Part shown: positions 15,342 through 64,000 of the stretch, one piece after another
How positions within the stretch are numbered: the stretch's first letter is position 1
Layout of the letters: each line of letters opens with the position of its first letter
Assembly (NCBI GenBank): GCA_041697335.1
Contig: JBGUGD010000009.1
Location: forward strand, 32,001 to 96,000
Direction: 5' to 3'
From: Vampirovibrionaceae bacterium NZW_1234
Lineage (GTDB): Bacteria; Cyanobacteriota; Vampirovibrionia; Vampirovibrionales; JAGQHJ01
DNA: 64,000 nt
The notes under the pieces: model-generated
What the model was told of the DNA's origin: nothing
Databases searched by the model: none
What the model saw: the letters and a program-made list of their open reading frames with translations, nothing else
Program-made: the position numbers and the translations under genes

Positions 15342-15953
15342 TTAAGCACCCATCCGAGCGTCACGAATGCCGCCCAGGAGCAAGCTGGCAAACAGTGCTT
15401 GCGGCAACTGGCTCAAAGGATTCGGACTGCTCATGGCTTGAGGGCTTTGAACAAATGTTGGTTGAACTTGATAGGCCGAGGTTCCCCATTGCATTGGACG
15501 AGGCTGCTGTTGTCCGGCAAGTTGGCCAAAGATTCCAGCTAAGCCGCCAAAGAGCATTTGCATGGTGCGGGGGTCTAATGCTGCCGCAGGCGGTTGTTGG
15601 CCCGTGGGATAGGACGGCTGCATCGGATAGGATGGCTGCGTCGGATATGAAGGCTGTGTTGGATATGAAGGCTGGGCCGGGTAGGAGGGGTAACTTGGCT
15701 GGTGTTGGTGGTGCGGCTGCCAGGGTTTATGCTGATGCTGCACCGGATAAAAAATCGGTTGTTGAATAATGAGTGTCGGTGGCACGGGGGCCGGAGCCGG
15801 AGCTGGAGGCGTATAGGTCGGCTGCTGCTGATAGGGTGGAATGACGACCGGAGGTTGTTGAACAACATAGGGTTGACCTCCGCCATAAGGATTAGCGCCA
15901 CCTTGAGAAGGGTAACCTCCATAAGCTTGGGATGGGCTTGAGTTGCTAAACAT
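15342..15953 (-). CDS. Pro/Gln/Tyr-rich low-complexity protein with QPSYP repeats
   Basis: GAGGAG RBS upstream; tandem QPSYP(T/M/A) repeats; C-terminal hydrophobic helix. Confidence 0.75.
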   Translation of the reverse strand: MFSNSSPSQAYGGYPSQGGANPYGGGQPYVVQQPPVVIPPYQQQPTYTPPAPAPAPVPPTLIIQQPIFYPVQHQHKPWQPHHQHQPSYPSYPAQPSYPTQPSYPTQPSYPMQPSYPTGQQPPAAALDPRTMQMLFGGLAGIFGQLAGQQQPRPMQWGTSAYQVQPTFVQSPQAMSSPNPLSQLPQALFASLLLGGIRDARMGA

Positions 15954-16029
15954 TGCTGAAACTCCTCACATGTCTTCTCTCAACACATTACTATTCAATG
16001 TCGGGAACAGTAACTACTCTCTATATTTA

Positions 16030-16061
16030 TATAAAAACAATCTTAAGAGATAATTGTGATA
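16030..16061 (-). promoter_or_regulatory. Conserved upstream element TATCACAA-N12-ATTGTTTTTATA
   Basis: Same bipartite element occurs upstream of the 16378-18054 gene. Confidence 0.6.
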
Positions 16062-16377
16062 GAGTGTTGCTATATGTAAATCTGAATTTGCTGAATTGTT
16101 TTTCGTTGAAAAGCTTGCTATAAGGCTTTTTATTGGAAATCTTATGAATCCGGAAAATGAAACAAAGCATAAAAATTGGCAGTGTTATGTAATTATTTCT
16201 GCATGGTCTGTAAAAAGCGACGAAACACAGTATATGGTTTTCTACCAGAATTAACGCAAGAAAAGAAAAAACCCTCTCAGGTCATGAGCGGGTTGTTCAG
16301 TGTGTGATAATGTGTGTGGGGGATATGAAACGGTATGTTTGGTGTAAGAAAATCTATAAAATGATTCTAATCCTGAT

Positions 16378-18054
16378 CTAGTACTGCGGCGGTGGAGCCG
16401 GTGTCGGCGTCGGACTCGGTGAGGGTCCTGGCGTCGGCGATGGGCTTGGGGACGGCCCAGGGCTCGGCGTCGGGCTAGGACTCGGTGAGGGTCCTGGCGT
16501 CGGTGATGGGCTTGGAGACGGACCAGGGCTCGGTGAGGGTCCTGGCGTCGGTGATGGGCTTGGAGACGGGCCAGGGCTCGGCGAAGGTCCGGGTGCTGGT
16601 GTTGTTCCACCACCACCGCCACCACCGCTTACTGGGGCAGGCGCTGGAGATACGGGTGGGTTCACCGGTGCCGGAGCAGCTACGGGAGTCTCCGCTTCTG
16701 CTTCCGCTGCTTCTTTACGCTTACGGATCAAGTCAATAATCACCAGGACGAGGGCAAACATGGCTCCAGAGTTTTGTTGTGGCGGCTTAGGCTGTGTACC
16801 TCCTGGTTTTGGAGCGCCTGGCTGCTGGCCTTTGATCTTCTCCAAAAGCATCCGGATGAGTTGCGGATCCAGCTGGGGTTGAACAGGGGCAGGCTGTGGC
16901 ATAGGCTGAGGCATGCTTAAACCAGGTGGGATTTGACCTGATGGCCCGGGATTATAGGGAATATAAACGGGCTGGAATAAGACTTGTGGTTGCTGAATTG
17001 GCGGTTGTGTCGGGGCTGGCAATCCCATGATCATGGGAGGTTGCTGACCCATACCAGGCATTCCTGGAAAACCGCCCATTGGTGGCTGTTGACCGAATCC
17101 TGGCATTGGGGGGAAACCGCCTGCCATGGGAGGTTGCTGGCCGAAGCCTGGAACCTGTGGAAATCCACCTAAGGCGGGTTGCTGACCAAATCCGGGAACT
17201 CCTGGGAATCCGCCACCCATCGGAGGCTGACCCATACCGGGCATACCTGGGAATCCACCACCCATTGGAGGCTGGCCCATGCCTGGGAATCCACCGCCCA
17301 TCGGGGGCTGGCCCATGCCAGGGAATCCGCCACCCATCGGGGGTTGACCCATGCCAGGGAATCCACCGCCCATCGGGGGTTGACCCATGCCTGGGAATTC
17401 ACCACCCATTGGAGGCTGGCCCATGCCAGGGAATCCGCCACCCATTGGAGGCTGGCCCATGCCAGGGAATCCACCGCCCATCGGGGGTTGACCCATGCCT
17501 GGGAATCCGCCACCCATCGGAGGCTGCTGACCTAGACCTGGGAATCCACCGCCCATCGGGGGCTGCTGACCTAGACCTGGGAATCCACCGCCCATCGGGG
17601 GCTGCTGACCCATGCCTGGGAATCCACCACCCATCGGAGGCTGGCCCATACCTGGGAATCCGCCACCCATCATGGGAGGTTGCTGTTGTTGTGGTGGTGG
17701 GAAGAAACTACCGCTGCCCATAGGAGGTTGCTGCTGCATGGGCGGGAAGAAACTACCACTGCCCATACCCGGTTGCTGCATGCCTCCGAGGCCAAGACCG
17801 GACATGCTTGGGAAACCGCCACCAAAGAAGGTGGGATTCTCAAACGTTTGTAATGTGGTTGGTGCCTGGTAGTTGGTCCCGAAATCCGGGAGGTACTGCA
17901 TCGCACCAGGACCATTATTTAAGGCAATATTTAAACCAATATTTAAATTCTGCTCATTCCCGTAACCTGACACATCACCATAAAAGGTACCCGTGTTCAC
18001 CTGATTCATGTTTATGGGAGGGGAGAAAGAAATATTGTTGACGTAAGATCCCAT
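16378..18054 (-). CDS. Large Gly/Pro/Met/Gln low-complexity repeat protein with (PSPSPTPG) tail
   Basis: AGGAG RBS; 558-aa open frame through all repeats; hydrophobic helix [13 protein letters not shown] followed by RKRK. Confidence 0.8.
16395..16595 (-). repeat. Coding tandem repeats PSPSP(T/G)PG
   Basis: Repeated ggctcggtgagggtcctggcgtcggtgatgggcttgg-type units. Confidence 0.85.
17040..17685 (-). repeat. Coding tandem repeat, 36/39-nt units GQ(Q)PPMGGGFPG(M/L)
   Basis: About 13 near-perfect and about 3 degenerate copies with synonymous third-position variation. Confidence 0.9.
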
Positions 18055-28992: not shown

Positions 28993-29799
28993 CTAGGATT
29001 CCATATCCTCGTATATTTTCCGAAAGTCGGCTTCGTTGCAGCCAAAGGCCTTGGCTAGATCTTGGCCGATTTTATTGATGCGCGAGCTGGGATGGCCCGT
29101 TAATGTCAGAATAGTGAAGCTCAGATCCTTTTGGAGCTGATAGGATAAGTCTTTAAACAACTTGGCCTCCCGCATTTTCAAAAGCAGATTACTGCCGTTT
29201 TTCGCCCAACTGTGTGCAAAGCGAACCATCGGGGACTGGTTCTTTTGGGGAATGTTCTCAAGCAGGACATCCGACAAGGTCGCCATGGTTTTGGCCACTT
29301 TGTAAGGGCTGGCGTTGGTCGGTATTTGGCCAAGGGCGGCATCGACCTGTTCGGTTTGGCCGGTTTGGCGCCCGATATATTTGACGAAACGGGTCATGAT
29401 CTCGGCCATCTTGACGTTGCCGGGGGCCAGGGCTTTTTCATAGAATGCGGGTTTGGGGAGTAATTTTTGCTTCAGTCTCTGTAGGAACGAATGGGATTTG
29501 TAGGCCCACAGCATATGACCGGCAATTTGAATCGGGAGTGCCAAAAAGCCGGTACCCAGGGTCACCAGGCCCAACACGCTTCCAATGACGACGTGTCCCG
29601 AAATGGAAAACACCAGCGGGTGGGTCAACATGCTTTTGATGCCGTTACCCAGCCACCGAAAAAACGAGGGCCGCTCCTGGGTCTGCTTGGATTCCGGGTT
29701 TGCCGAAAACTGCAGCGATGGGCGCCCGGTGGACACGGCTTTTTGAGATGCCGTCCGATGGGTAAGGGCTGTGAAGGGGGCTTGTGGGGAAATGTGCAT
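28993..29799 (-). CDS. Hypothetical membrane protein (N-terminal LQFSA motif)
   Basis: Start MHISPQ at 29799 with GAGGA RBS (ORF opens at 29853); hydrophobic hairpin. Confidence 0.65.
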   Translation of the reverse strand: MHISPQAPFTALTHRTASQKAVSTGRPSLQFSANPESKQTQERPSFFRWLGNGIKSMLTHPLVFSISGHVVIGSVLGLVTLGTGFLALPIQIAGHMLWAYKSHSFLQRLKQKLLPKPAFYEKALAPGNVKMAEIMTRFVKYIGRQTGQTEQVDAALGQIPTNASPYKVAKTMATLSDVLLENIPQKNQSPMVRFAHSWAKNGSNLLLKMREAKLFKDLSYQLQKDLSFTILTLTGHPSSRINKIGQDLAKAFGCNEADFRKIYEDMES

Positions 29800-29922
29800 C
29801 GTACCCAATCCTCGTTTAAGAACGCCGGTCCCTATGATGACCGCCATACCCAACTAAAAACCGCCCAAAAAATTTCTTGCTAGGAAATTTTTCCCATCTG
29901 CCTTGGGCTGGAATGCAGGCTT

Positions 29923-43973: not shown

Positions 43974-44825
43974 TTAGCGGCCTGTCTTTTTCGGCACTCG
44001 ATAGCTCCCTTCCATGGCACCGTAGTCCACTCGGATCCCCTGGATTCGATTACCCAAATGCCGAAACACCGGGAGAAATTCAAGAAGGCCATTTAGCGAG
44101 AGGATTCTCGCCAGAGTGCCGGGATCATCGCAGAATTTAAGGCCCACCTCATTTAAACGATAAGGTTTTTCCTGTTTCCGCCGGGCCAGGTCAACCCGAT
44201 GATCCACCAGTTCTGTGAGCTGCCAGCCTTTGCCCGGGTTGCCGACATGGTAGCGGGCAATATCCCAGACGGGTTTGTTCCTTAGAAAGAGCCCAACGGC
44301 CCCTTCTCTATAGGGATTATTGTCCAGTTGTGCCGCATAGATGGCCTGATCAACCGCTTCGCCCCAAGGGTTATCCCCGGCTTGCAAGGCTTGCAGGAAT
44401 AACTCCCGCCTCATCTTTCGCTCCACTTCCTGTTTCGGTCGGAAAATCTTCAAGGCATAGTCCTTGGAGCGGGTTGAAAGCTTATAAATATGGCCAAACC
44501 CGCCTTTGCCCAAGTGCCACAGGGTAACCGGCTGATCGCTCAACCGGGCGGTCATCTGCCAGGGCCGCCGTTGGTTTAATGTATCCGCAAGGGTATCGAT
44601 GGCTTCCAATGTTCGACGATCCGCTTCCGGTGACTGTGTAGAGGAGGCAAGATCTTCAGGGAGTTCTCCCAAGTAAGGATCCTGCTCCTTTTCAATGTCG
44701 TGTTTGAGAGTGCTTTCCAGCTCATATCCCATCATCAGACGTTTTTCTGCTGCCTGGGTGGCTTGTACACCCTGAAACCGCAGGCGATAATCACAAGCGG
44801 AGAAAGAAGACACGGATACTGTCAT
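43974..44825 (-). CDS. Minimal protein-kinase-like protein (N-terminal LRFQG motif)
   Basis: LGKGGFGHIY Gly-loop, YALKIF Lys, REG helix-C Glu candidate, LTELVD hinge, GN...VDYG (DFG-like). Confidence 0.65.
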   Translation of the reverse strand: MTVSVSSFSACDYRLRFQGVQATQAAEKRLMMGYELESTLKHDIEKEQDPYLGELPEDLASSTQSPEADRRTLEAIDTLADTLNQRRPWQMTARLSDQPVTLWHLGKGGFGHIYKLSTRSKDYALKIFRPKQEVERKMRRELFLQALQAGDNPWGEAVDQAIYAAQLDNNPYREGAVGLFLRNKPVWDIARYHVGNPGKGWQLTELVDHRVDLARRKQEKPYRLNEVGLKFCDDPGTLARILSLNGLLEFLPVFRHLGNRIQGIRVDYGAMEGSYRVPKKTGR

Positions 44826-55248: not shown

Positions 55249-56448
55249 ATGGGTTTATCCAGCTTGGCTGTAGTCTTGGGGATTATCAATCAGATTTATG
55301 CGATTGATTTTCAAACCAACGCGCTTTATCAACAGAAATTTGCTATTGCAAAATTTGCACAATTGATGAACCAGAATAAGATGTCTGCCTACATGGCTAA
55401 AGAAGGGCAGATGGTTAAGTTCCAGGTCTTGGATATGAGTGGCGATGTTCCGGTGATTGTTCAAAATCGCTTCCGAAACTCCAACTCTGTGTTACGTGCC
55501 GCGGCTGCCAATAATACGGCACCTGGACAACCAGGTCACCAAATTTTCCAAAATCATCGGGCTGAACTGTTTAGAAGCAACGGAGTGAACGATACTCGTC
55601 GTTTCCGTCCGGATGGAACGGTTGAAAGTGGTGAAATCCGTGTAGGTAGTGTTGTTGTCCCAGCGACTTATGCGGCTTGTACGACTGAGGAGCAGCGTGA
55701 AGCGTTCCGCAAGGTTCGTCACCTGGAAGATGTTGCTCGTGCCCGTGCACAAACCCAATTGGGTGAGAATTATTACTATAGTCAGAACGCCAATGGTGTG
55801 AGTAACACTGATCTATTCTTAGGCCGAGGCGAGGTACGCGATGACTCGTTCCTGGTGTATGATGCCAGTGGTCACTTGACACCTCCGGGCTTCTTGCCGA
55901 TTACGGATCAGTCTCGTGCAGCCTGGGCCAACGCATCGGCTTCGGATATTTTCCATCCGAACGTGGGAAGCAATGCTCACGCGGCTAGCGATGGTGAAGT
56001 TGAGGATGTTTATCGGGGTGTTGGAGGGGCACCTGCAACACCACAAGCCAGACGGGATGCCTTCAACCGGCTTGCCGGGCTGGAAGATGGAGCAGTTCTT
56101 AATGCTGCGGGTGGTGCTGGTAACGAATTTGTTGCCTTGGCGGCAAAATACGGCCTACCTGCAAACTGTACGGCTCAGCAGCTTAGACAAGCGATTACGA
56201 ACGGGATTCGTCAGAACCGTCGTGCTCAGTGTCCAACCGCTAAGAAAGGCGAGTTGATGCTGGATAAGAAACAAGCCGAAGAACTGGCCAAAGCGTATCT
56301 GGAAGCTTTGAACCAGATGGAAAAAGAAATTGATATGAAGTTGGAAACCTTAAAGTCACAGCGTGCTGCTCTGAACTCGCAGAAAGAAGAATATCAGAAG
56401 TACGTATCTGAAGGCATTAAATCCAGCTTTAAGAATAACTACGCATAA
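55249..56448 (+). CDS. Hypothetical protein with helical termini and C-terminal coiled coil
   Basis: GGGG RBS-like element; 399 aa; own terminator. Confidence 0.8.
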   Translation: MGLSSLAVVLGIINQIYAIDFQTNALYQQKFAIAKFAQLMNQNKMSAYMAKEGQMVKFQVLDMSGDVPVIVQNRFRNSNSVLRAAAANNTAPGQPGHQIFQNHRAELFRSNGVNDTRRFRPDGTVESGEIRVGSVVVPATYAACTTEEQREAFRKVRHLEDVARARAQTQLGENYYYSQNANGVSNTDLFLGRGEVRDDSFLVYDASGHLTPPGFLPITDQSRAAWANASASDIFHPNVGSNAHAASDGEVEDVYRGVGGAPATPQARRDAFNRLAGLEDGAVLNAAGGAGNEFVALAAKYGLPANCTAQQLRQAITNGIRQNRRAQCPTAKKGELMLDKKQAEELAKAYLEALNQMEKEIDMKLETLKSQRAALNSQKEEYQKYVSEGIKSSFKNNYA

Positions 56449-56740: not shown

Positions 56741-59431
56741 ATGTCAGGTATTGGTATCAGGGGGTTTGATCCGACGGAGCCTGTATTATTCGGGCCTGAT
56801 GGTGACATGCCAGTACGTGGACGTCGGCCTGCGGAACCATTTGTTCCTCGGATGGGCATGACTGTATACCGTCCAATTGACCCAATGACAGGGTTGCCAA
56901 GAGCAATTCCTTATATACCTGTTCCTGTGGCTCCTCCATCTGAACCAACTGGCACTTCGGGTCCAGCTTCAGTTGATGGAATGAACTCGGGCGTTAGTTA
57001 TGATGATTTTTATGCTCTACCTCCAGCACCTACTCCCGTCGGTAGCTCTGGAGCATCCGGCACAAGTGGTGCATCTGGTGCAAGCGGTGCCTCAGGTACA
57101 AGTGGTACAACTAGTCCGGTAGTCCCTGCCACTCCAACTAATCCAGACGCCATTAATTATGACGATTTTTATGCTGTACCTTCAGCACCCACTCCCGTCG
57201 GTAGCTCTGGCGCATCCGGCACAAGCGGTGCATCCGGCACAAGCGGTGCATCCGGCACAAGTGGCGCATCCGGCACAAGTGGCGCATCCGGCACAAGTGG
57301 CGCATCCGGCACAAGCGGTGCATCTGGAACAAGCGGCGCATCTGGAACAAGTGGCGCATCCGGGCCGGTAGCCCCAGCCACTCCAACTGATCCAGACGCC
57401 ATTAATTATGACGATTTTTATGCTGTACCTCCAGCACCCACTCCCGTCGGTAGCTCTGGCGCATCCGGCACAAGCGGTGCATCCGGCACAAGTGGCGCAT
57501 CCGGCACAAGTGGTGCATCCGGTACAAGCGGTGCCTCTGGAACAAGCGGTGCCTCTGGAACAAGCGGTGCATCCGGCACAAGTGGCGCATCCGGGCCGGT
57601 AGCCCCAGCCAATCCAACTGATCCAGAAGCCATTAATTATGACGATTTTTATGCTGTAACGCCAGCACCTACTCCCGTCGGTAGCTCTGGCGCATCCGGC
57701 ACAAGCGGTGCCTCTGGAGCAAGTGGCGCATCCGGCACAAGCGGTGCCTCTGGAACAAGCGGCGCATCCGGCACAAGTGGTGCATCCGGCACAAGCGGCG
57801 CATCCGGTACAAGCGGTGCCTCTGGAACAAGCGGCGCATCCGGCACAAGTGGTGCCTCTGGAACAAGCGGCGCATCCGGCACAAGTGGTGCCTCTGGAAC
57901 AAGCGGCGCATCCGGACCAACAACGCTTGCTGTCGGTGGCATAAACTATACTCTAGAGGTTGGTAGGCCTTTAGCCGGGACATCGGTTAATTTAACTGCA
58001 GATGATGTCACTAAACTGCGTGATGAAACACGCCAAGCTGCAAATTGGACTCGCTTTGAGAGTCTCGTTAATGATAGAGGCAATCCGTCGAAGATTGCAG
58101 AACTGAATACCTTTTTAGAGGGGTTAAGTCCAGCGGAACGACGTGTTTTGATGGATCGACTTGAAAAGCAGCTCGCCGATCGAGAAACGCCCAGTGCTGG
58201 AACACCTGATCAAAACCTGAGAAGGGTTGCTGCTCTTGGTTTGCCGTCTAGTACTTGGATTCGAATGAATGCTGGATTGACCTATCAGCCCAGTAATACA
58301 GAATGGGCCGTTAAGGATATTGTTGAGGGCCGATATCAACATAATCCGGCGAATTTAGGGGAATCCAGAGCTGCTATTGATCGTGCATCGCAGCTGTACC
58401 AATATCTGCAGACCTTGAAAAATGGTAATCCTGAGCAGAGACGTTTATATGATTCCATTATTGCTTCATACCGGAGCCAGCCTGGAAAAGCGTCTGCAGA
58501 TTTAGAAGCCGATTTAATAACGAATCAACGAAATTATTTAAATTGGTTAAATACGTCGACGACCATTAGTGCTACAGATCGGAATGCAGCTGTTACACAG
58601 CTTTTTGCGGGGATGCCGGCTGCACAGGCAAATCTGATTACAAATCCGCAAATCGATGGTGCTCGTGTTTCTGATCAAACTCTATTCCAAAGAGGTAACG
58701 AAAAGACAGCAACAGCGAATACCGGTGATAATGCATTCCTAGATAGCTCAGGATTCTATGCGGTTTCTCGCTGGACGAATTATGATAATCCAACACAACA
58801 TGCGGCCTTGCAACAAGAACGAGCTGCTTTAAGGGCACGTTTGGCAGGAGCTCAGTGGGACACCTTACCAGATCAAGGCTTGGATCAAGCTGGCTTTGAG
58901 ACTTGGTTAAATGCTCAAAATGATAATGTTAAGAACTTTGTTCGGGATTATCATACTTACTTGCAAGGCCAAGGGGTCACTGATGCAAATGAACGAAATC
59001 GCAGAATTCGCACATTATTCCTATCTCTCAAAATGAATGAGGTTCCGACTCGGGAAGATGTACAGGCGATTTTGGAGAAACCACACCTTGCATTACCCAA
59101 CATTACTGCAGAGAACCTAAATCAAAACTATACATCCAATAGTGTTTGGGACAATAATGCAACAAATCGCACACATGTAAGAAACCACTTAGTTACTTTA
59201 GGAGCTCGTTTTAATGATCTGCCAGGCGAGAACCTCACTCCAGAATTATTTAACACGTGGTTAAATAATCAAAATGCTCAGGTTAAACGCTTTGCAGAAT
59301 CATATAGAGCCTATTTGAGGACTTTAACGACTGGATCTCCTGCGAGACCTTTAACAAATGAGCAGATAGAAAGAGCTCTCCGTGCCTATTTCCTGTCATT
59401 AAAGTTGGAAACAATGGCTCCGCGTAGCTAA
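56741..59431 (+). CDS. 896-aa protein with nested SGASGT / YDDFYA repeats and duplicated C-terminal helical domain
   Basis: AAGGGGG RBS; frame open across all repeats; terminator downstream. Confidence 0.85.
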   Translation: MSGIGIRGFDPTEPVLFGPDGDMPVRGRRPAEPFVPRMGMTVYRPIDPMTGLPRAIPYIPVPVAPPSEPTGTSGPASVDGMNSGVSYDDFYALPPAPTPVGSSGASGTSGASGASGASGTSGTTSPVVPATPTNPDAINYDDFYAVPSAPTPVGSSGASGTSGASGTSGASGTSGASGTSGASGTSGASGTSGASGTSGASGTSGASGPVAPATPTDPDAINYDDFYAVPPAPTPVGSSGASGTSGASGTSGASGTSGASGTSGASGTSGASGTSGASGTSGASGPVAPANPTDPEAINYDDFYAVTPAPTPVGSSGASGTSGASGASGASGTSGASGTSGASGTSGASGTSGASGTSGASGTSGASGTSGASGTSGASGTSGASGTSGASGPTTLAVGGINYTLEVGRPLAGTSVNLTADDVTKLRDETRQAANWTRFESLVNDRGNPSKIAELNTFLEGLSPAERRVLMDRLEKQLADRETPSAGTPDQNLRRVAALGLPSSTWIRMNAGLTYQPSNTEWAVKDIVEGRYQHNPANLGESRAAIDRASQLYQYLQTLKNGNPEQRRLYDSIIASYRSQPGKASADLEADLITNQRNYLNWLNTSTTISATDRNAAVTQLFAGMPAAQANLITNPQIDGARVSDQTLFQRGNEKTATANTGDNAFLDSSGFYAVSRWTNYDNPTQHAALQQERAALRARLAGAQWDTLPDQGLDQAGFETWLNAQNDNVKNFVRDYHTYLQGQGVTDANERNRRIRTLFLSLKMNEVPTREDVQAILEKPHLALPNITAENLNQNYTSNSVWDNNATNRTHVRNHLVTLGARFNDLPGENLTPELFNTWLNNQNAQVKRFAESYRAYLRTLTTGSPARPLTNEQIERALRAYFLSLKLETMAPRS
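56993..57915 (+). repeat. Hierarchical coding repeat: four macro-units each containing an 18-nt (SGASGT) array
   Basis: (V/I)(S/N)YDDFYA(L/V) heads at 56993, 57152, 57401, 57632; spacings 159, 249, 231 nt. Confidence 0.92.
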
Positions 59432-59481: not shown

Positions 59482-59632
59482 CTACTGTTTATAAATTACT
59501 CGGCTAGAAAAATATAAGGTTAGAGCTAAGAGGGAGGAAAGCTTGAATTGATTTTTGTCAAATAATAGAGTTTTTAGTGCTATATGCCATTATGTTAACT
59601 TTTGTTTCATACGTAACATCAAAAATATTAAT

Positions 59633-59644
59633 ATTGTTTTTATA
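59633..59644 (+). promoter_or_regulatory. ATTGTTTTTATA element upstream of the six-gene array
   Basis: Identical 12-mer found upstream of three other ORFans; 55 nt before GTG. Confidence 0.5.
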
Positions 59645-59698: not shown

Positions 59699-60514
59699 GT
59701 GACATTTAATACAATATTGTTAATGACAGTCCCGATGGCTGTCGGCCAAGATCCTGACACGCCAAAGAGGCCAAGCCAGGTAGATAAGATAGAACCTTTT
59801 CCAGGCGGAAATAATGAAAATCTAGTTATCGGTGGTATTCCCGGGGGAAAGACGGGGACACCGTTTAAACCGGGACAGGTTAAAGTGGATGATACTAGAG
59901 GCACAGAAACAGGTTCAGGTGGTTCGCCGGGAGGTACTGGTGGATCAGTTTTTAAGCCAGGTCAAGTTAAGGTTGATGAAACTCGTGGTACTGAAGTAAA
60001 ACCGCCTATCCCCCAGCCTGCAGTTTATACACCACCGGCAGGGTTTTCCATGGATGTTGCAAAGGCAAATAGCCTGAGCTACCCGCCCCCAAAAAGGCCA
60101 TATGATCGTGGCGATATGAACTCTGAAAGTTATTACATTGCACGTAATCGCCCGAAGAATGAAGCTTTTGTGAAGCAGCTTTATCAAATGATTCTGGGGA
60201 GAGATGGTTCTCCAGGAGAAATCAGTGGTTGGAGCTCACGGTTAGATTCAGGTGAATCTGCAGATATGGTTCTTGCAGAGTTTTTGATTTCTGATGAATT
60301 TAACCAGAAATATCCAATGAGTAATGAAGAATTTGTAAAAAACGTTTATCGAATCTACTTACGCCGTGAAGCTGATCCTGAAGGGATAGCAGGATGGAGT
60401 GGAAAGGTTAATAGTGGTGAATTATCTCGAAAAGACTTAATTAAAAATATACTTCAATCTGCAGAATTCAGAAATAATGTACTTTTGCCAAGGTTACGAA
60501 TGTTGACTAGATAA
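59699..60514 (+). CDS. FKPGQVKVDD-motif protein A with DUF4214-like C-terminus
   Basis: GGAGG RBS; two motifs; FVKQLYQMILGR...W...L.SG...F..SDEF and SNEEFV..VY...LRREADPEG..W...SR......SAEF. Confidence 0.85.
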   Translation: MTFNTILLMTVPMAVGQDPDTPKRPSQVDKIEPFPGGNNENLVIGGIPGGKTGTPFKPGQVKVDDTRGTETGSGGSPGGTGGSVFKPGQVKVDETRGTEVKPPIPQPAVYTPPAGFSMDVAKANSLSYPPPKRPYDRGDMNSESYYIARNRPKNEAFVKQLYQMILGRDGSPGEISGWSSRLDSGESADMVLAEFLISDEFNQKYPMSNEEFVKNVYRIYLRREADPEGIAGWSGKVNSGELSRKDLIKNILQSAEFRNNVLLPRLRMLTR

Positions 60515-60614
60515 TAAGCGGAATTTGGCCAAGTCAAGTCTATGGCCATCGTCAATCTCATCTCGTAGTGATTTTAAATTCTTATACAGCTAGGTTTATG
60601 GAGGTCGTTGGATA

Positions 60615-61496
60615 ATGAATATTTCACCTGTAATGTTATTGGGCTTGCCATTTGGAGCGCCGCAAGATCCTAATACGCCGAAGCCGCCTAGCAATACAAA
60701 AAATATTGACGACAGTAGTGGTAATGAGTTTGGGGTGCCAGGGGCAACAACTCCAGATAAGAAACCGAATCATTATTTTAAGCCCGGTCAAGTTAAAGTA
60801 GTGGATTCAGGGGGAACAGAACCCAATGCTTCGAAATCCAACGGACCACCCTCAAAAAGTATATTTAAGCCGGGTCAGGTAAAAGTGGATGATTCTCGTG
60901 GGTCCGAGAAGGGAGTGCCCACTAAGGCCCCTGTGGTTTCTACTCCTCCATCTAGGAGCATCGATTTGGAATCTGCAAAGCGTTTAAGCTATCCTCCCAT
61001 CAATATTTGGGCTCTTAATTCTCTACCTGAACCATATAATTCTTTTGTGCAAGGAAATACCAAATATTTAGTTGAAAAATGCTTAAATAACTTTTCGAAG
61101 CAAACTTTTTTGGAAATCCAAAATAAAAAATTTGCAAAAGATGTCTACCAGCTATTGTTGGGCCGGGAAATACAGCCTTGGGAATTAGAGGCACGTGCCA
61201 ATCAATTGCAAACCGGTGAATTTACTCCGGAAGACTTAATAAAGGCGGTTCTCATTTCGGATGAGTTTAACCAGAAAAACCCAATGAGTAACGAGGAATT
61301 TACCAGAAGCCTATATCGGCTGATTCTACAACGAGAAGCGAAACCAAATGAAGTTTCTGGTTGGGCTTCCGCATTAGACTCAGGTCAGGTTAGTCGCAAG
61401 CAGATGATAGAAAAATTTCAGCAGTCCAGTGAATATCTTAGTGATGTAGCCTACCCAAGGTTTAAGGATGAAATAAGCCGTTATTCATTCTTGTAA
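60615..61496 (+). CDS. FKPGQVKVDD-motif protein B with DUF4214-like C-terminus
   Basis: GGAGG RBS; two motifs; paralog of A (LISDEFNQK.PMSNEEF). Confidence 0.85.
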   Translation: MNISPVMLLGLPFGAPQDPNTPKPPSNTKNIDDSSGNEFGVPGATTPDKKPNHYFKPGQVKVVDSGGTEPNASKSNGPPSKSIFKPGQVKVDDSRGSEKGVPTKAPVVSTPPSRSIDLESAKRLSYPPINIWALNSLPEPYNSFVQGNTKYLVEKCLNNFSKQTFLEIQNKKFAKDVYQLLLGREIQPWELEARANQLQTGEFTPEDLIKAVLISDEFNQKNPMSNEEFTRSLYRLILQREAKPNEVSGWASALDSGQVSRKQMIEKFQQSSEYLSDVAYPRFKDEISRYSFL

Positions 61497-61557
61497 TGAA
61501 CAAAAAGAATTTTGATTACATTGGTTATTTACGGATAAGACACAGGAGACAATAAAA

Positions 61558-62079
61558 ATGAGCGTTACTAGTGTTTTACTTTTCGGAACACCATTGGCAA
61601 TTGGACAAGACCCAAATACACCAAAGCGTCCAACTCAAACAGGCACGATTGACCCGGATGCAGGTCGTGATAGTAATCCAGTCGTTGGCCCGGGAACAAC
61701 AGGGACACAAAACAATGTGTTTAAGCCTGGGCAGGTAAAAGTTGATGATAAACGTGGGACGGAGGTCACGGGTGCATCTTCCGGAAATTCGCCTCAAACG
61801 GTGTTTAAGCCAGGTCAAGTAAAAGTAGATGACACGCGCGGGACCGAAGTTGTAAAAGCACCGGTCGTAAATGTCCCTGCACCAACGGCCCCAACACCTG
61901 CAGTGACGTACTACCAACCGGTAAAAACCACAGATCCCGATGATGAATTGGTTTATGATGATACTTGTGGTAATGACGTCTATTATACCCGTCGTCAATT
62001 GCGAGAGAAAGAGGAAGCTATTCAGCGCGCACGCCCAAATGACACACCTCCAAGCTCTGATCCCTATGACAACTACTAA
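61558..62079 (+). CDS. FKPGQVKVDD-motif protein C
   Basis: AGGAG RBS; two motifs; TTDPDDEL.Y.D.CGND.Y tail. Confidence 0.82.
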   Translation: MSVTSVLLFGTPLAIGQDPNTPKRPTQTGTIDPDAGRDSNPVVGPGTTGTQNNVFKPGQVKVDDKRGTEVTGASSGNSPQTVFKPGQVKVDDTRGTEVVKAPVVNVPAPTAPTPAVTYYQPVKTTDPDDELVYDDTCGNDVYYTRRQLREKEEAIQRARPNDTPPSSDPYDNY

Positions 62080-62142
62080 CAGCTCATATAAAGAAAGACA
62101 CACGTAAATTAAATTGATAATTCGTAGGAGGACAACGATATA

Positions 62143-62664
62143 ATGAGCGTTACGAGTGTTTTGCTATTTGGGACACAGCTCGCAATTGGACAAGACCCAA
62201 ATACACCAAAGCGTCCAACTCAAACAGGTACGGTTGACCCGGATGCAGGTCGTGATAGTAATCCAGTCGTTGGCCCGGGAACAACAGGGACACAAAACAA
62301 TGTGTTTAAGCCTGGGCATGTAAAAGTTGATGATAAACGTGGAACGGAGGTCACGGGTGCATCTTCCGGAAATTCACCTCAAATGGTGTTTAAGCCAGGT
62401 CAAGTAAAAGTAGATGACACGCGCGGGACCGAAGTTCTGAAGACGCCAATTGGCGATACTCTGAGACCAACAAAGCCAACATCTGTGGTTAATAACTATC
62501 CACTGGTAATAACCACAGATCCTGATGATGAATTGGATTATACTGACTCCTGTGGTAACGATATTTACTTTACTCGGCGTCAGGTACGTGAAAAATGGGA
62601 AGCTGTTCAACGGGCAAGAGCAAATAGCAGACCCTCAAGCTCTGAATCCTATGACGACAATTGA
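62143..62664 (+). CDS. FKPGQVKVDD-motif protein D (recent duplicate of C)
   Basis: AGGAGG RBS; 5' half near-identical to C at DNA level. Confidence 0.82.
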   Translation: MSVTSVLLFGTQLAIGQDPNTPKRPTQTGTVDPDAGRDSNPVVGPGTTGTQNNVFKPGHVKVDDKRGTEVTGASSGNSPQMVFKPGQVKVDDTRGTEVLKTPIGDTLRPTKPTSVVNNYPLVITTDPDDELDYTDSCGNDIYFTRRQVREKWEAVQRARANSRPSSSESYDDN

Positions 62665-62731
62665 ATACTCAAGTAAGAGACGAAAATAACTTGAAGAAAT
62701 TAATTGGATAGAATATGGAGTAAATTGGAAA

Positions 62732-63154
62732 ATGAGCTTTGGAACCATAGCAATGATGTCATTAACAACCACATTACCTTGGAAGTTTATTCCAGAAGAT
62801 ACGCCAAAGAGAGAAAGTAATGCCAATAAAATTGAAGATACCAGTGGCAATGGAACACAGACAACAGGATCGTCTTCTGGGGGTTCTTCTAACAACTATT
62901 TTAAACCAGGTCAAGGGAGAGTAGATGATACCCGCGGAACAGAAGTCGCGAAGACAGGTACTGCTGCAAAGCAACCATCATCGGCAGTATCAACGAGCAA
63001 CAGCGAGTCTTTGTTTGCTGAAAAAGAAATTATGATTTTATGGGGAGTTAATATGAAGGTAGTTTATTTTAATGCTCCTATTAAAAGCGTTCCTTCTTCT
63101 ACGGAGCAAAACCCTGAAATTCCTAAGTATCTTCGTGACTTACATGGCCTGTAA
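62732..63154 (+). CDS. FKPGQ-motif protein E (single motif)
   Basis: GGAG RBS; MSFGTIAMM leader; FKPGQGRVDDTRGTE. Confidence 0.75.
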   Translation: MSFGTIAMMSLTTTLPWKFIPEDTPKRESNANKIEDTSGNGTQTTGSSSGGSSNNYFKPGQGRVDDTRGTEVAKTGTAAKQPSSAVSTSNSESLFAEKEIMILWGVNMKVVYFNAPIKSVPSSTEQNPEIPKYLRDLHGL

Positions 63155-63260
63155 ATATTCTTTTACCCAGTAGTAAGAGTTTTCTATTCTCTATTACCGA
63201 TAACTACAATATACAAGGTATGAATATCATTATTTCGCAAAACTAAGGAGGAATTGGACA

Positions 63261-63776
63261 GTGACATTTGGAACCATTGCAATGATGACACCTTGGAGTT
63301 TCGGTCAGGATCCGGATACGCCAAAAAAAACCAGTAATGCTAAAAATGTTGATGATTCTGGTGGCCTTGGCACCTATTTTGGAGGTAATTCAACCGTTAA
63401 TCCTGGTGGAAGTAACGCAACAAGTGTATTCAAGCCCGGTAAAGTCAAGGTTGATGATGCCCGGGGTACTGAAACGAAAGGGGCAACCCCTGGAGGAGGA
63501 GGTTCTAAGTCGGTATTTAAACCTGGTCAAACAAAGGTTGATGATACTCGGGGGACTGAAGTGAAGACTCCGCCCGTGGTAGCTAAACCTGCAACTCCTT
63601 CTGAGGAAAAAAAGGAACCTTATAATCCTGGTTATCGATCCGAGTCAGAACCACCACCAGGCTACTACTGGGATTACAGTGACGTTGTTGCTGGCGGAGG
63701 GGGGCCTGATTTGAAACCTATTCCTGGGTATCGTCCTTCTGCACCTCCGCCTGAGTTTGATCCGAATGATTTTTAG
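63261..63776 (+). CDS. FKPGQVKVDD-motif protein F
   Basis: AAGGAGG RBS before GTG; two motifs; Pro/Tyr-rich tail. Confidence 0.82.
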   Translation: MTFGTIAMMTPWSFGQDPDTPKKTSNAKNVDDSGGLGTYFGGNSTVNPGGSNATSVFKPGKVKVDDARGTETKGATPGGGGSKSVFKPGQTKVDDTRGTEVKTPPVVAKPATPSEEKKEPYNPGYRSESEPPPGYYWDYSDVVAGGGGPDLKPIPGYRPSAPPPEFDPNDF

Positions 63777-63791
63777 TCATCTTCGCTAGCC

Positions 63792-63839
63792 TTAAAAGTG
63801 ACAATGCAAGGTGTTTTGCCTTGCTTTTGTCACTTTTAA
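63792..63839 (+). terminator. Long hairpin closing the six-gene array
   Basis: TTAAAAGTGACAA.GCAAGG / CCTTGC..TTGTCACTTTTAA. Confidence 0.75.
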
Positions 63840-64000
63840 CTTTAATCCTGGTCTATAATAGCTATGCTTTATGCAATCTGTTTTTATAAGATGCATTGTT
63901 TTTTGCTATGAGATTGAACATATTTTGTTCTGTTCTAGAAATAGAGTGCTATAAAGTCCTTGAACTTAATGAGCATAAGTATTTACATTCTCACAACATT

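Follow-up and report, generated by a model that had tools for sequence, protein, structure and literature searches.

N-terminal type III export modules are said to recombine with new C-termini in a process called terminal reassortment, reportedly described by Stavrinides, Ma and Guttman in 2006. Chimeric type III effectors are treated in PMC6460904 and, in Salmonella, SlrP, SspH1, SspH2, SifA, SifB, SseI and SseJ have in common an N-terminal region of ~142 amino acids (aa) that directs their type III secretion (PMC9320238). Psh, an RTX-DUF4214 protein of Pseudomonas putida, binds O-antigen (bioRxiv 10.64898/2026.09.02.748959), and in the predator Bdellovibrio a FliA-type sigma factor has been repurposed, with ~140 promoters, for the attack phase (PMC3627812). 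Here we analyse a stretch of 64,000 nucleotides from Vampirovibrionaceae bacterium NZW_1234 (hereafter the window; contig C9, positions 32001-96000 of the genome, genome label G000), at the end of which begins an array of 12 genes with a shared N-terminal head and differing tails. Our preferred reading, held tentatively and at somewhat less than an even chance, is that the array proteins are exported by a type III route and that their head combines export and docking functions and carries interchangeable cargo.

The array resembles the Salmonella translocated (STE) effector family in that a shared N-terminal head is placed on tails of differing kind. However, the head has no homology to the 142-aa domain (among 1.84 billion protein representatives, only this locus was matched), is predicted to be disordered with 1-3 short repeats, and occurs in one tandem gene array, whereas the candidate exporter is a duplicated flagellar-type apparatus and not an injectisome. 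Unlike in terminal reassortment, exchange in the array apparently took place among neighbours, and an outside source is evident for DUF4214 alone. Judged by analogy, the array seems to work like the Salmonella family and terminal reassortment, but it belongs to neither. Similar to Psh, the array proteins A and B contain DUF4214, with scores that exceed the Pfam cut-off, but the array proteins have no RTX match in Pfam and no type I secretion genes adjoin them; the type I system of this genome lies on another contig (C16), next to a fragment of an RTX-like protein, and is not preceded by the promoter of the array. As in the Bdellovibrio regulon, a FliA-type sigma factor is the candidate for control of a large regulon; the Bdellovibrio site resembles the E. 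coli sigma-28 box, whereas the array promoter does not, and its candidate reader is a divergent FliA-like paralog.

The array, its constant head and its tails

An earlier note on this DNA, made from its letters alone, described a family of six genes. The six co-oriented open reading frames (ORFs), A to F on the forward strand, are in place, but the family continues just beyond the window end into genes G-L (C9:96080-101380, L001:5080-10380, with 3, 1, 2, 2, 2 and 3 motifs, respectively), which brings it to 12 genes with 24 copies of the motif. Gene A (59699..60514, 271 aa) has head motifs at 59864-59908 and 59951-59995, and gene B (60615..61496, 293 aa) at 60777-60821 and 60864-60908. They are followed by genes C (61558..62079, 173 aa; motifs 61720-61764 and 61804-61848), D (62143..62664, 173 aa; 62305-62349 and 62389-62433), E (62732..63154, 140 aa; a single motif at 62900-62944) and F (63261..63776, 171 aa; 63429-63473 and 63516-63560). 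The previously given count of 11 motifs in A-F, two each in A, B, C, D and F and one in E, is correct, as are the short gaps between the genes (100, 61, 63, 67 and 106 nt) and the GGAG or GGAGG sequence 5' of every gene. The long hairpin behind F (63792..63839, forward strand) is real as well, with a folding energy of -25.8 kcal/mol (z -7.0) equalled by none of 200 shuffles, and is probably the terminator of a putative A-F transcript; a spacer (63840..64000) precedes G-L.

The head is ~70-130 aa long, and the tails behind it are unrelated apart from the pairs described below. It opens with a leader of ~16 residues that starts without basic residues (K and R are absent from residues 1-6 in all 12 genes) and ends with A/S-x-G↓Q in nine of the 12, followed by a PxTPxRPSxAxNIxDSSGxE segment. 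The element (Q)DPxTPK, earlier assigned to all six window genes, is present as QDPxTPK in five of them (A-D and F), but E has PEDTPK. The part after TPK (RPSxAxNIxDSSGxE) has the appearance of a degenerate initial motif copy, and the first motif of G is intermediate between this segment and the full motif. The first full motif begins at residue 53-57 in all 12 proteins, and further copies follow 28-30 residues apart. Mean identity is 79% among motifs versus 26% among spacers, and F1, P3, G4, V8 and G13 are identical in 24 of 24 copies, although the regular expression used to collect the copies fixes those columns (the hidden Markov model, HMM, added no genes). For the 11 window motifs, the proportions of nonsynonymous (pN) and synonymous (pS) differences are 0.084 and 0.771, compared with 0.638 and 0.69 for spacers of equal length, which bears out the claim of strong, purifying selection on the motif between diverging spacers. 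Since pN of the motif is low while its pS is as high as that of the spacers, selection acts on the peptide and not on the DNA.

AlphaFold2 with a 12-row alignment of heads produced no fold (pTM 0.12) and a sole helix at residues 5-14, and by this model the head is predicted to be disordered; a complex prediction with three head copies returned no answer (score 0.02) and carries no weight for or against association. No segment of transmembrane strength was found in the array proteins (best 12-residue hydropathy 0.9-1.9), and crude rules for Tat, lipobox, prepilin and double-glycine patterns gave no match in any of the 12. Of the Sec features, the basic n-region and the hydrophobic core are lacking, and a cleavage-like site only is seen, in nine of the 12.

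Among the tails, those of A and B each consist of two tandem DUF4214 stretches, as the earlier note had suggested (PF13946, 87.2 and 66.6 bits versus a Pfam cut-off of 23.2), and the B tail is 36% identical to the A tail. A third DUF4214-like insert, ~25% identical to the A tail, is found in an otherwise different 596-aa protein (C5:200162-201952). The acidic, DxCGND-containing tail is indeed common to C and D. Of the two tails described as unique, the short one of E is so, but the Pro/Tyr tail of F matches that of K (56% identity over 39 aa, E 2.5e-10). All other tails are unique within the array, including a Gly/Tyr-rich tail in J and a Gly/Pro/Phe-rich one in L. A homolog search with the H tail returned only itself, and for the G tail none of 33 candidates held; H modelled alone reached a pLDDT of 44, and a Foldseek search with this model had no match at E <= 0.001. 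A 943-base contig encodes a 162-aa form of G (P0016) whose last 8 residues diverge; its reading as a tail swap was rejected, and it was treated as a fragment.

Heads and tails have different histories. The C and D genes are 95% identical in the DNA of their heads and 69% in that of their tails, with synonymous differences of 0.14 and 0.58, respectively, and the far closer heads point to a recent conversion of the head. The head of K is 70-71% identical to those of I and J and 48% to that of F, whereas its tail is of the F type. In trees, neither an A+B clade (p-AU 0.062) nor an I+J+K clade (0.18) is rejected. Together, the pN/pS of the motif and the discordance of heads and tails support the view that a constant head under selection carries polymorphic cargo. 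The term "swappable" for the tails is reasonably supported, and conversion among neighbours explains the pattern as well as the capture of new tails does.

The family is real, under selection and private to its lineage, and it is known from one organism. The HMM search of the genome that had been proposed in the earlier note, run with the head against 33,250 six-frame ORFs, recovered exactly the 12 array genes (E <= 1.5e-21; next E 2.6). The head was not found in 40 related genomes (4 of the same family), and among the 1.84 billion protein representatives its profile gave 11 matches, none of them from outside this locus except for a near-identical fragment of G; a search of longer proteins for head homologs found none, which is weak evidence. 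A degenerate DNA pattern had no occurrences in metagenome contigs and none in genome contigs, protein I matched 0 of 313 stretches of metagenome contigs, and the ESM Atlas held no usable match for the family. A single viral-contig match to a shorter pattern was rejected, being out of frame inside another ORF. As the earlier note had it, the motif is not a named family: motif and head profiles had no match in Pfam and PHROGs (all 12 proteins) or in NCBIfam (A-F only), and the best PDB sequence reached E 1.2, a chance match to aquaporin-4. Likenesses of the motif to the first strand of KOW, tau repeats, CsoS2 and SUMO sites were dropped, as profiles did not support them.

The array has a G+C content of 42.9% versus 50.4% for the genome, and in a marker gene the nearest named relatives are Vampirovibrionales (V. 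chlorellavorus, 70%). The locus is covered by contigs of four public DNA runs, from at most three samples of which one is possibly the source, and is not an assembly artefact, since these contigs agree with it at 0-2 differences in the long pieces listed; among the sequencing runs listed for the locus, none is of RNA. One of them omits an 87-nt repeat in J, where 35 letters fit both sides, and this omission may be an assembly collapse.

A genome-wide promoter and the genes behind it

Gene A is preceded by a bipartite promoter of alternative-sigma type (59614..59644, forward strand; TAnCA, 17-18 nt, GTTTTTATA), which scores 31.2 bits with a genome-derived matrix; the consensus is TA(G/A/T)CA, 17-18 nt, GTTTTTATA. 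The promoter element previously placed at 59633 is the downstream half of this genome-wide element. The core 10-mer occurs 78 times in the genome versus a median of 11 for shuffled 10-mers, and the upstream box lies at exactly 22-23 nt in 56 of 102 intergenic cores. The exact bipartite pattern is found 63 times versus 0 for the reversed pattern, and the matrix, trained on 58 of its own hits, finds 116 sites of >= 16 bits versus 0 in the reversed genome. Within the array, H, I and J each carry their own copy (21.4, 19.4 and 18.7 bits, respectively), whereas B-G, K and L score <= 2.2 bits, G having only a core at window position 63880 (1.7 bits). As B-F lack promoters of their own and the hairpin at 63792-63839 follows them, A-F probably form one transcript. 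A scan for sigma-70 promoters remained at chance level (24 vs 26.5). The canonical sigma-28 consensus is TAAA-N15-GCCGATA; 26 such sites occur separately in the genome, none of them on contig C9, and the consensus of the array promoter differs.

Of 99 promoter sites with a downstream ORF, we kept the 70 with a ribosome-binding site at a distance of 30-200 nt. A crude Sec-like start was found in none of these 70 genes versus 128 of 1187 in the background (Fisher p 0.0008), and their N-termini contain more S, N, Q and G and less E and K. The promoter-bearing genes mostly encode low-complexity proteins without signal peptides. Likewise, in five relatives (30 of 35 sites), the downstream ORFs are by eye mostly low-complexity or lineage-specific, some are EF-hand-like or peptidase-like, and two are ordinary enzymes.

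Several other genes deserve mention here. An 833-aa protein encoded after the array (C9:102034-104535, L001:11034-13535) has a long hydrophobic stretch and a coiled coil and appears translocator-like by eye; its gene has an 18.3-bit promoter at a distance of 323 nt on the 5' side, followed by a 16-codon ORF whose ribosome-binding site is good. Two minus-strand genes at window positions 15342-18054, encoding Pro/Gly/Gln/Met-rich repeat proteins of 203 and 558 aa, have the same promoter with 36.1 and 31.2 bits. An N-terminal motif of the [LIVP]xFG type occurs in 92 of 1187 background genes versus 2 of 70 promoter-bearing ones (e.g., window 28993-29853 and 43974-44825), which suggests a second, differently controlled class of exported proteins. 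In a 719-aa protein (C2:10943-13102, L044:444-2603), an RpoD-like sigma core is preceded by a long N-terminal extension whose beginning resembles that of the many 'xFG' leader proteins of this genome, and the protein is possibly an exported sigma factor.

A second export apparatus and the proposed route of the array proteins

A second flagellum-derived type III export apparatus is present in the genome, where FlhA, FlhB, FliP, FliQ, FliR, FliI, FliF and FlgC each occur in two copies. One of the two FlhA-family genes scores over the FlhA cut-off, whereas the other falls below the cut-offs of both FlhA and SctV. In a flagellin-family search, one cluster with three flagellins and, in addition, a single FlgL-like gene were found. 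The second cluster has the order flgF/G, flgG, flgB, flgC, lytic transglycosylase-like gene, fliE, fliF, unnamed gene, fliH, flhA, fliI, in which some gene names were assigned by eye, and it matches the gene numbering listed for ACD20 by Di Rienzi et al. 2013 (PMC3787301), who list two flhA genes of ACD20 as flagellar genes.

Directly behind flhB2, there is a divergent FliA-like sigma gene (TIGR02479, 74.8 bits versus a cut-off of 189.6). In 66 of 80 related loci, among them that of a named V. chlorellavorus record, the sigma gene stands behind a flhB2-like gene, and close orthologs of the sigma factor and of FliF2 are found in the same 40 of 91 genomes of the class. In 39 of these 40 genomes, promoter matches number 203 versus 40 in the reversed control (sums made by hand; 63 versus 0 in the source genome), whereas the 51 genomes without the orthologs have 32 versus 50. 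The genome also encodes a second FliA-like sigma paralog (C16:18950-19630), which is 44% identical and occurs in most of the relatives searched.

On our preferred reading, the 12 array genes would form a private family of exported proteins transcribed by the FliA-like sigma factor encoded beside flhB2, with A-F as one unit and H, I and J from their own promoters, as part of a regulon of ~100 genes. The likely exporter would be the second, flagellum-derived type III apparatus, which is encoded elsewhere in the genome. The export signal would lie in residues 1 to 15 or 20, and the rest of the head would form a flexible chain in which 1-3 short turn-and-strand motifs dock on one dedicated partner, either an export adaptor or a scaffold on the surface or the prey. 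The motif fits a short binding motif for one partner because of its fixed position, its repeat number and its invariant F, P, G, V and G. Exchange of the head between genes by recombination would deliver different tails to the same place, and A and B would carry an anchor to cell-surface glycan.

A number of observations weigh against this reading. The second export operon itself has no such promoter (-8.6 to -22.4 bits), and the sigma paralog on C16 could read the promoter instead. The five families that carry the trio of sigma factor, FliF2 and promoter are kin and not independent cases, and in one of them (f7) the promoter excess is weak (68 vs 27), with no site in 2 of 18 genomes. By the head HMM, the motif is missing from the other promoter-bearing genes, and it is therefore not a general export signal. 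A search of the genome for YbjN-type chaperones gave one match, below the cut-off, and a CesT search gave none, although its controls gave none either. The A/S-x-G↓Q ending of nine leaders hints at cleavage, and type III substrates are not usually cleaved. Finally, an F+K clade is rejected only marginally (p-AU 0.046, in a weak tree with seven of nine inner branches open), and the training of the promoter matrix on its own hits counts here too.

Several alternatives assign the head another role. It is unlikely, in our view, that the motif is a self-assembly strand by which the exported proteins co-polymerise into an extracellular coat or attachment pad, with DUF4214 as a tie to surface glycan and the Gly/Tyr/Pro-rich tails as cement. 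The motif is highly charged and begins with F-x-P-G, unlike curli and Fap repeats; E and H contain only one full copy, and the long tails of G and H look folded and not cement-like. Nevertheless, repeats that are multivalent, keep a fixed spacing and vary in number (1-3), the composition of the J and L tails and the tandem DUF4214 of A and B would suit such a coat, and V. chlorellavorus has an attachment pad (PMC4451040). The lack of Sec signals fits a cytoplasmic location equally well, and the proteins might be unexported scaffolds of a developmental state, induced by an alternative sigma factor, whose motif docks on a cytoplasmic partner. FliA/WhiG-type sigma factors can drive stage programs, e.g., the attack phase of Bdellovibrio (PMC3627812), and the absence of this promoter from the second export operon agrees with such a scaffold. 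We regard this as rather improbable, considering that DUF4214 is found mostly in secreted or surface proteins and that, in 66 of 80 loci, the sigma gene has a gene of the export gate as its neighbour.

Processing of precursors, to which we give a lower probability still, would have the leader cut at A/S-x-G↓Q by a signal peptidase or a C39-like peptidase and the repeats released or cross-linked, e.g., by an ATP-grasp (graspetide-type) maturase. This is in line with the site itself in nine of 12 leaders, with the array's promoter on four of the seven C39-like matches in the genome, and with one stand-alone, maturase-like ATP-grasp gene (TIGR04187, 132.8 bits versus a cut-off of 350). However, that gene lies on another contig (C30) with a promoter score of -13.4 bits; it is the sole match of a RimK-family search of the genome, falls below all maturase cut-offs, and has no likely precursor adjoining it. 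Neither a basic n-region nor a Tat, lipobox, prepilin or double-glycine pattern is seen in any of the 12 proteins. Further counter-evidence comes from the motif: Arg freely takes the place of its Lys, a sign against lysine chemistry, most copies in I, J and K lack lysine altogether, position 11 varies, and the residues that never change are F, P, G, V and G. Graspetide repeats usually place Thr, Ser or Lys donors ahead of Asp or Glu acceptors, whereas in the motif the conserved Thr comes after a conserved Asp pair, the reverse of that order. The ATP-grasp protein (C30:121164-122093, L163:1465-2394) has short TQNYSG-like tandem repeats upstream on the other strand. The four stand-alone C39-like peptidase genes with the promoter are located at C37:142312-144786, C5:228339-229037 and C14:49516-50193.

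The array combines cargo exchange with a selected head in a family without relatives in the collections searched, and its genomic context may matter more. Soo et al. 2015 (PMC4451040) predicted a type IV route for the attack of Vampirovibrio on algae, and 'type III' is absent from the main text of that paper; a VirB10 search of our genome gave one match, below the cut-off. No description of a second flagellum-derived export system was found in the literature searched, which included few subscription journals and did not extend to the supplements of PMC4451040 and PMC3787301 with their flagellar genes. Such a machine may have been overlooked in the group of Vampirovibrio. The second apparatus, the candidate sigma factor and the precise promoter together yield a list of candidate substrates testable in co-cultures of V. 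chlorellavorus, and they may account for the retention of flagellum-production genes in gut relatives that have no filament genes. A wider proposal, which we consider doubtful, is that a delivery system of flagellar descent, as yet undescribed, operates in Vampirovibrionia with a sigma factor of its own and up to ~100 substrates, in which the array would be a second address layer, a portable, recombining repeat cassette that docks tails on one partner at the interface with prey or host. Predation by Vampirovibrio, which has until now been attributed to a conjugative type IV system, would in that case depend at least in part on this machine.

Genes around the array

The earlier note had considered a dedicated export or modification system at the locus. 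This was not supported: by eye, and by profile scans for the direct neighbours, no peptidase, ligase, chaperone or secretion gene was recognised among the ORFs flanking the array. Rfam gave 0 matches over C9:91001-111000.

Upstream of gene A, the window encodes an 896-aa protein (56741-59431) with four YDDFYAxPPAPTPVG-type repeats between long runs of Gly-x-Ser triplets, a match to Pfam Collagen (93 bits), a helical C-terminal half and a promoter score of only 5.9 bits; its Tyr motif is reminiscent of effector phosphorylation motifs. Further upstream, there is a gene for a 399-aa protein (55249-56448) with a promoter-like site of 12.0 bits. The helical ends of this protein are weakly related (E 0.004) to a five-gene family of this genome, which includes a 111-aa protein of MSFAAS type.

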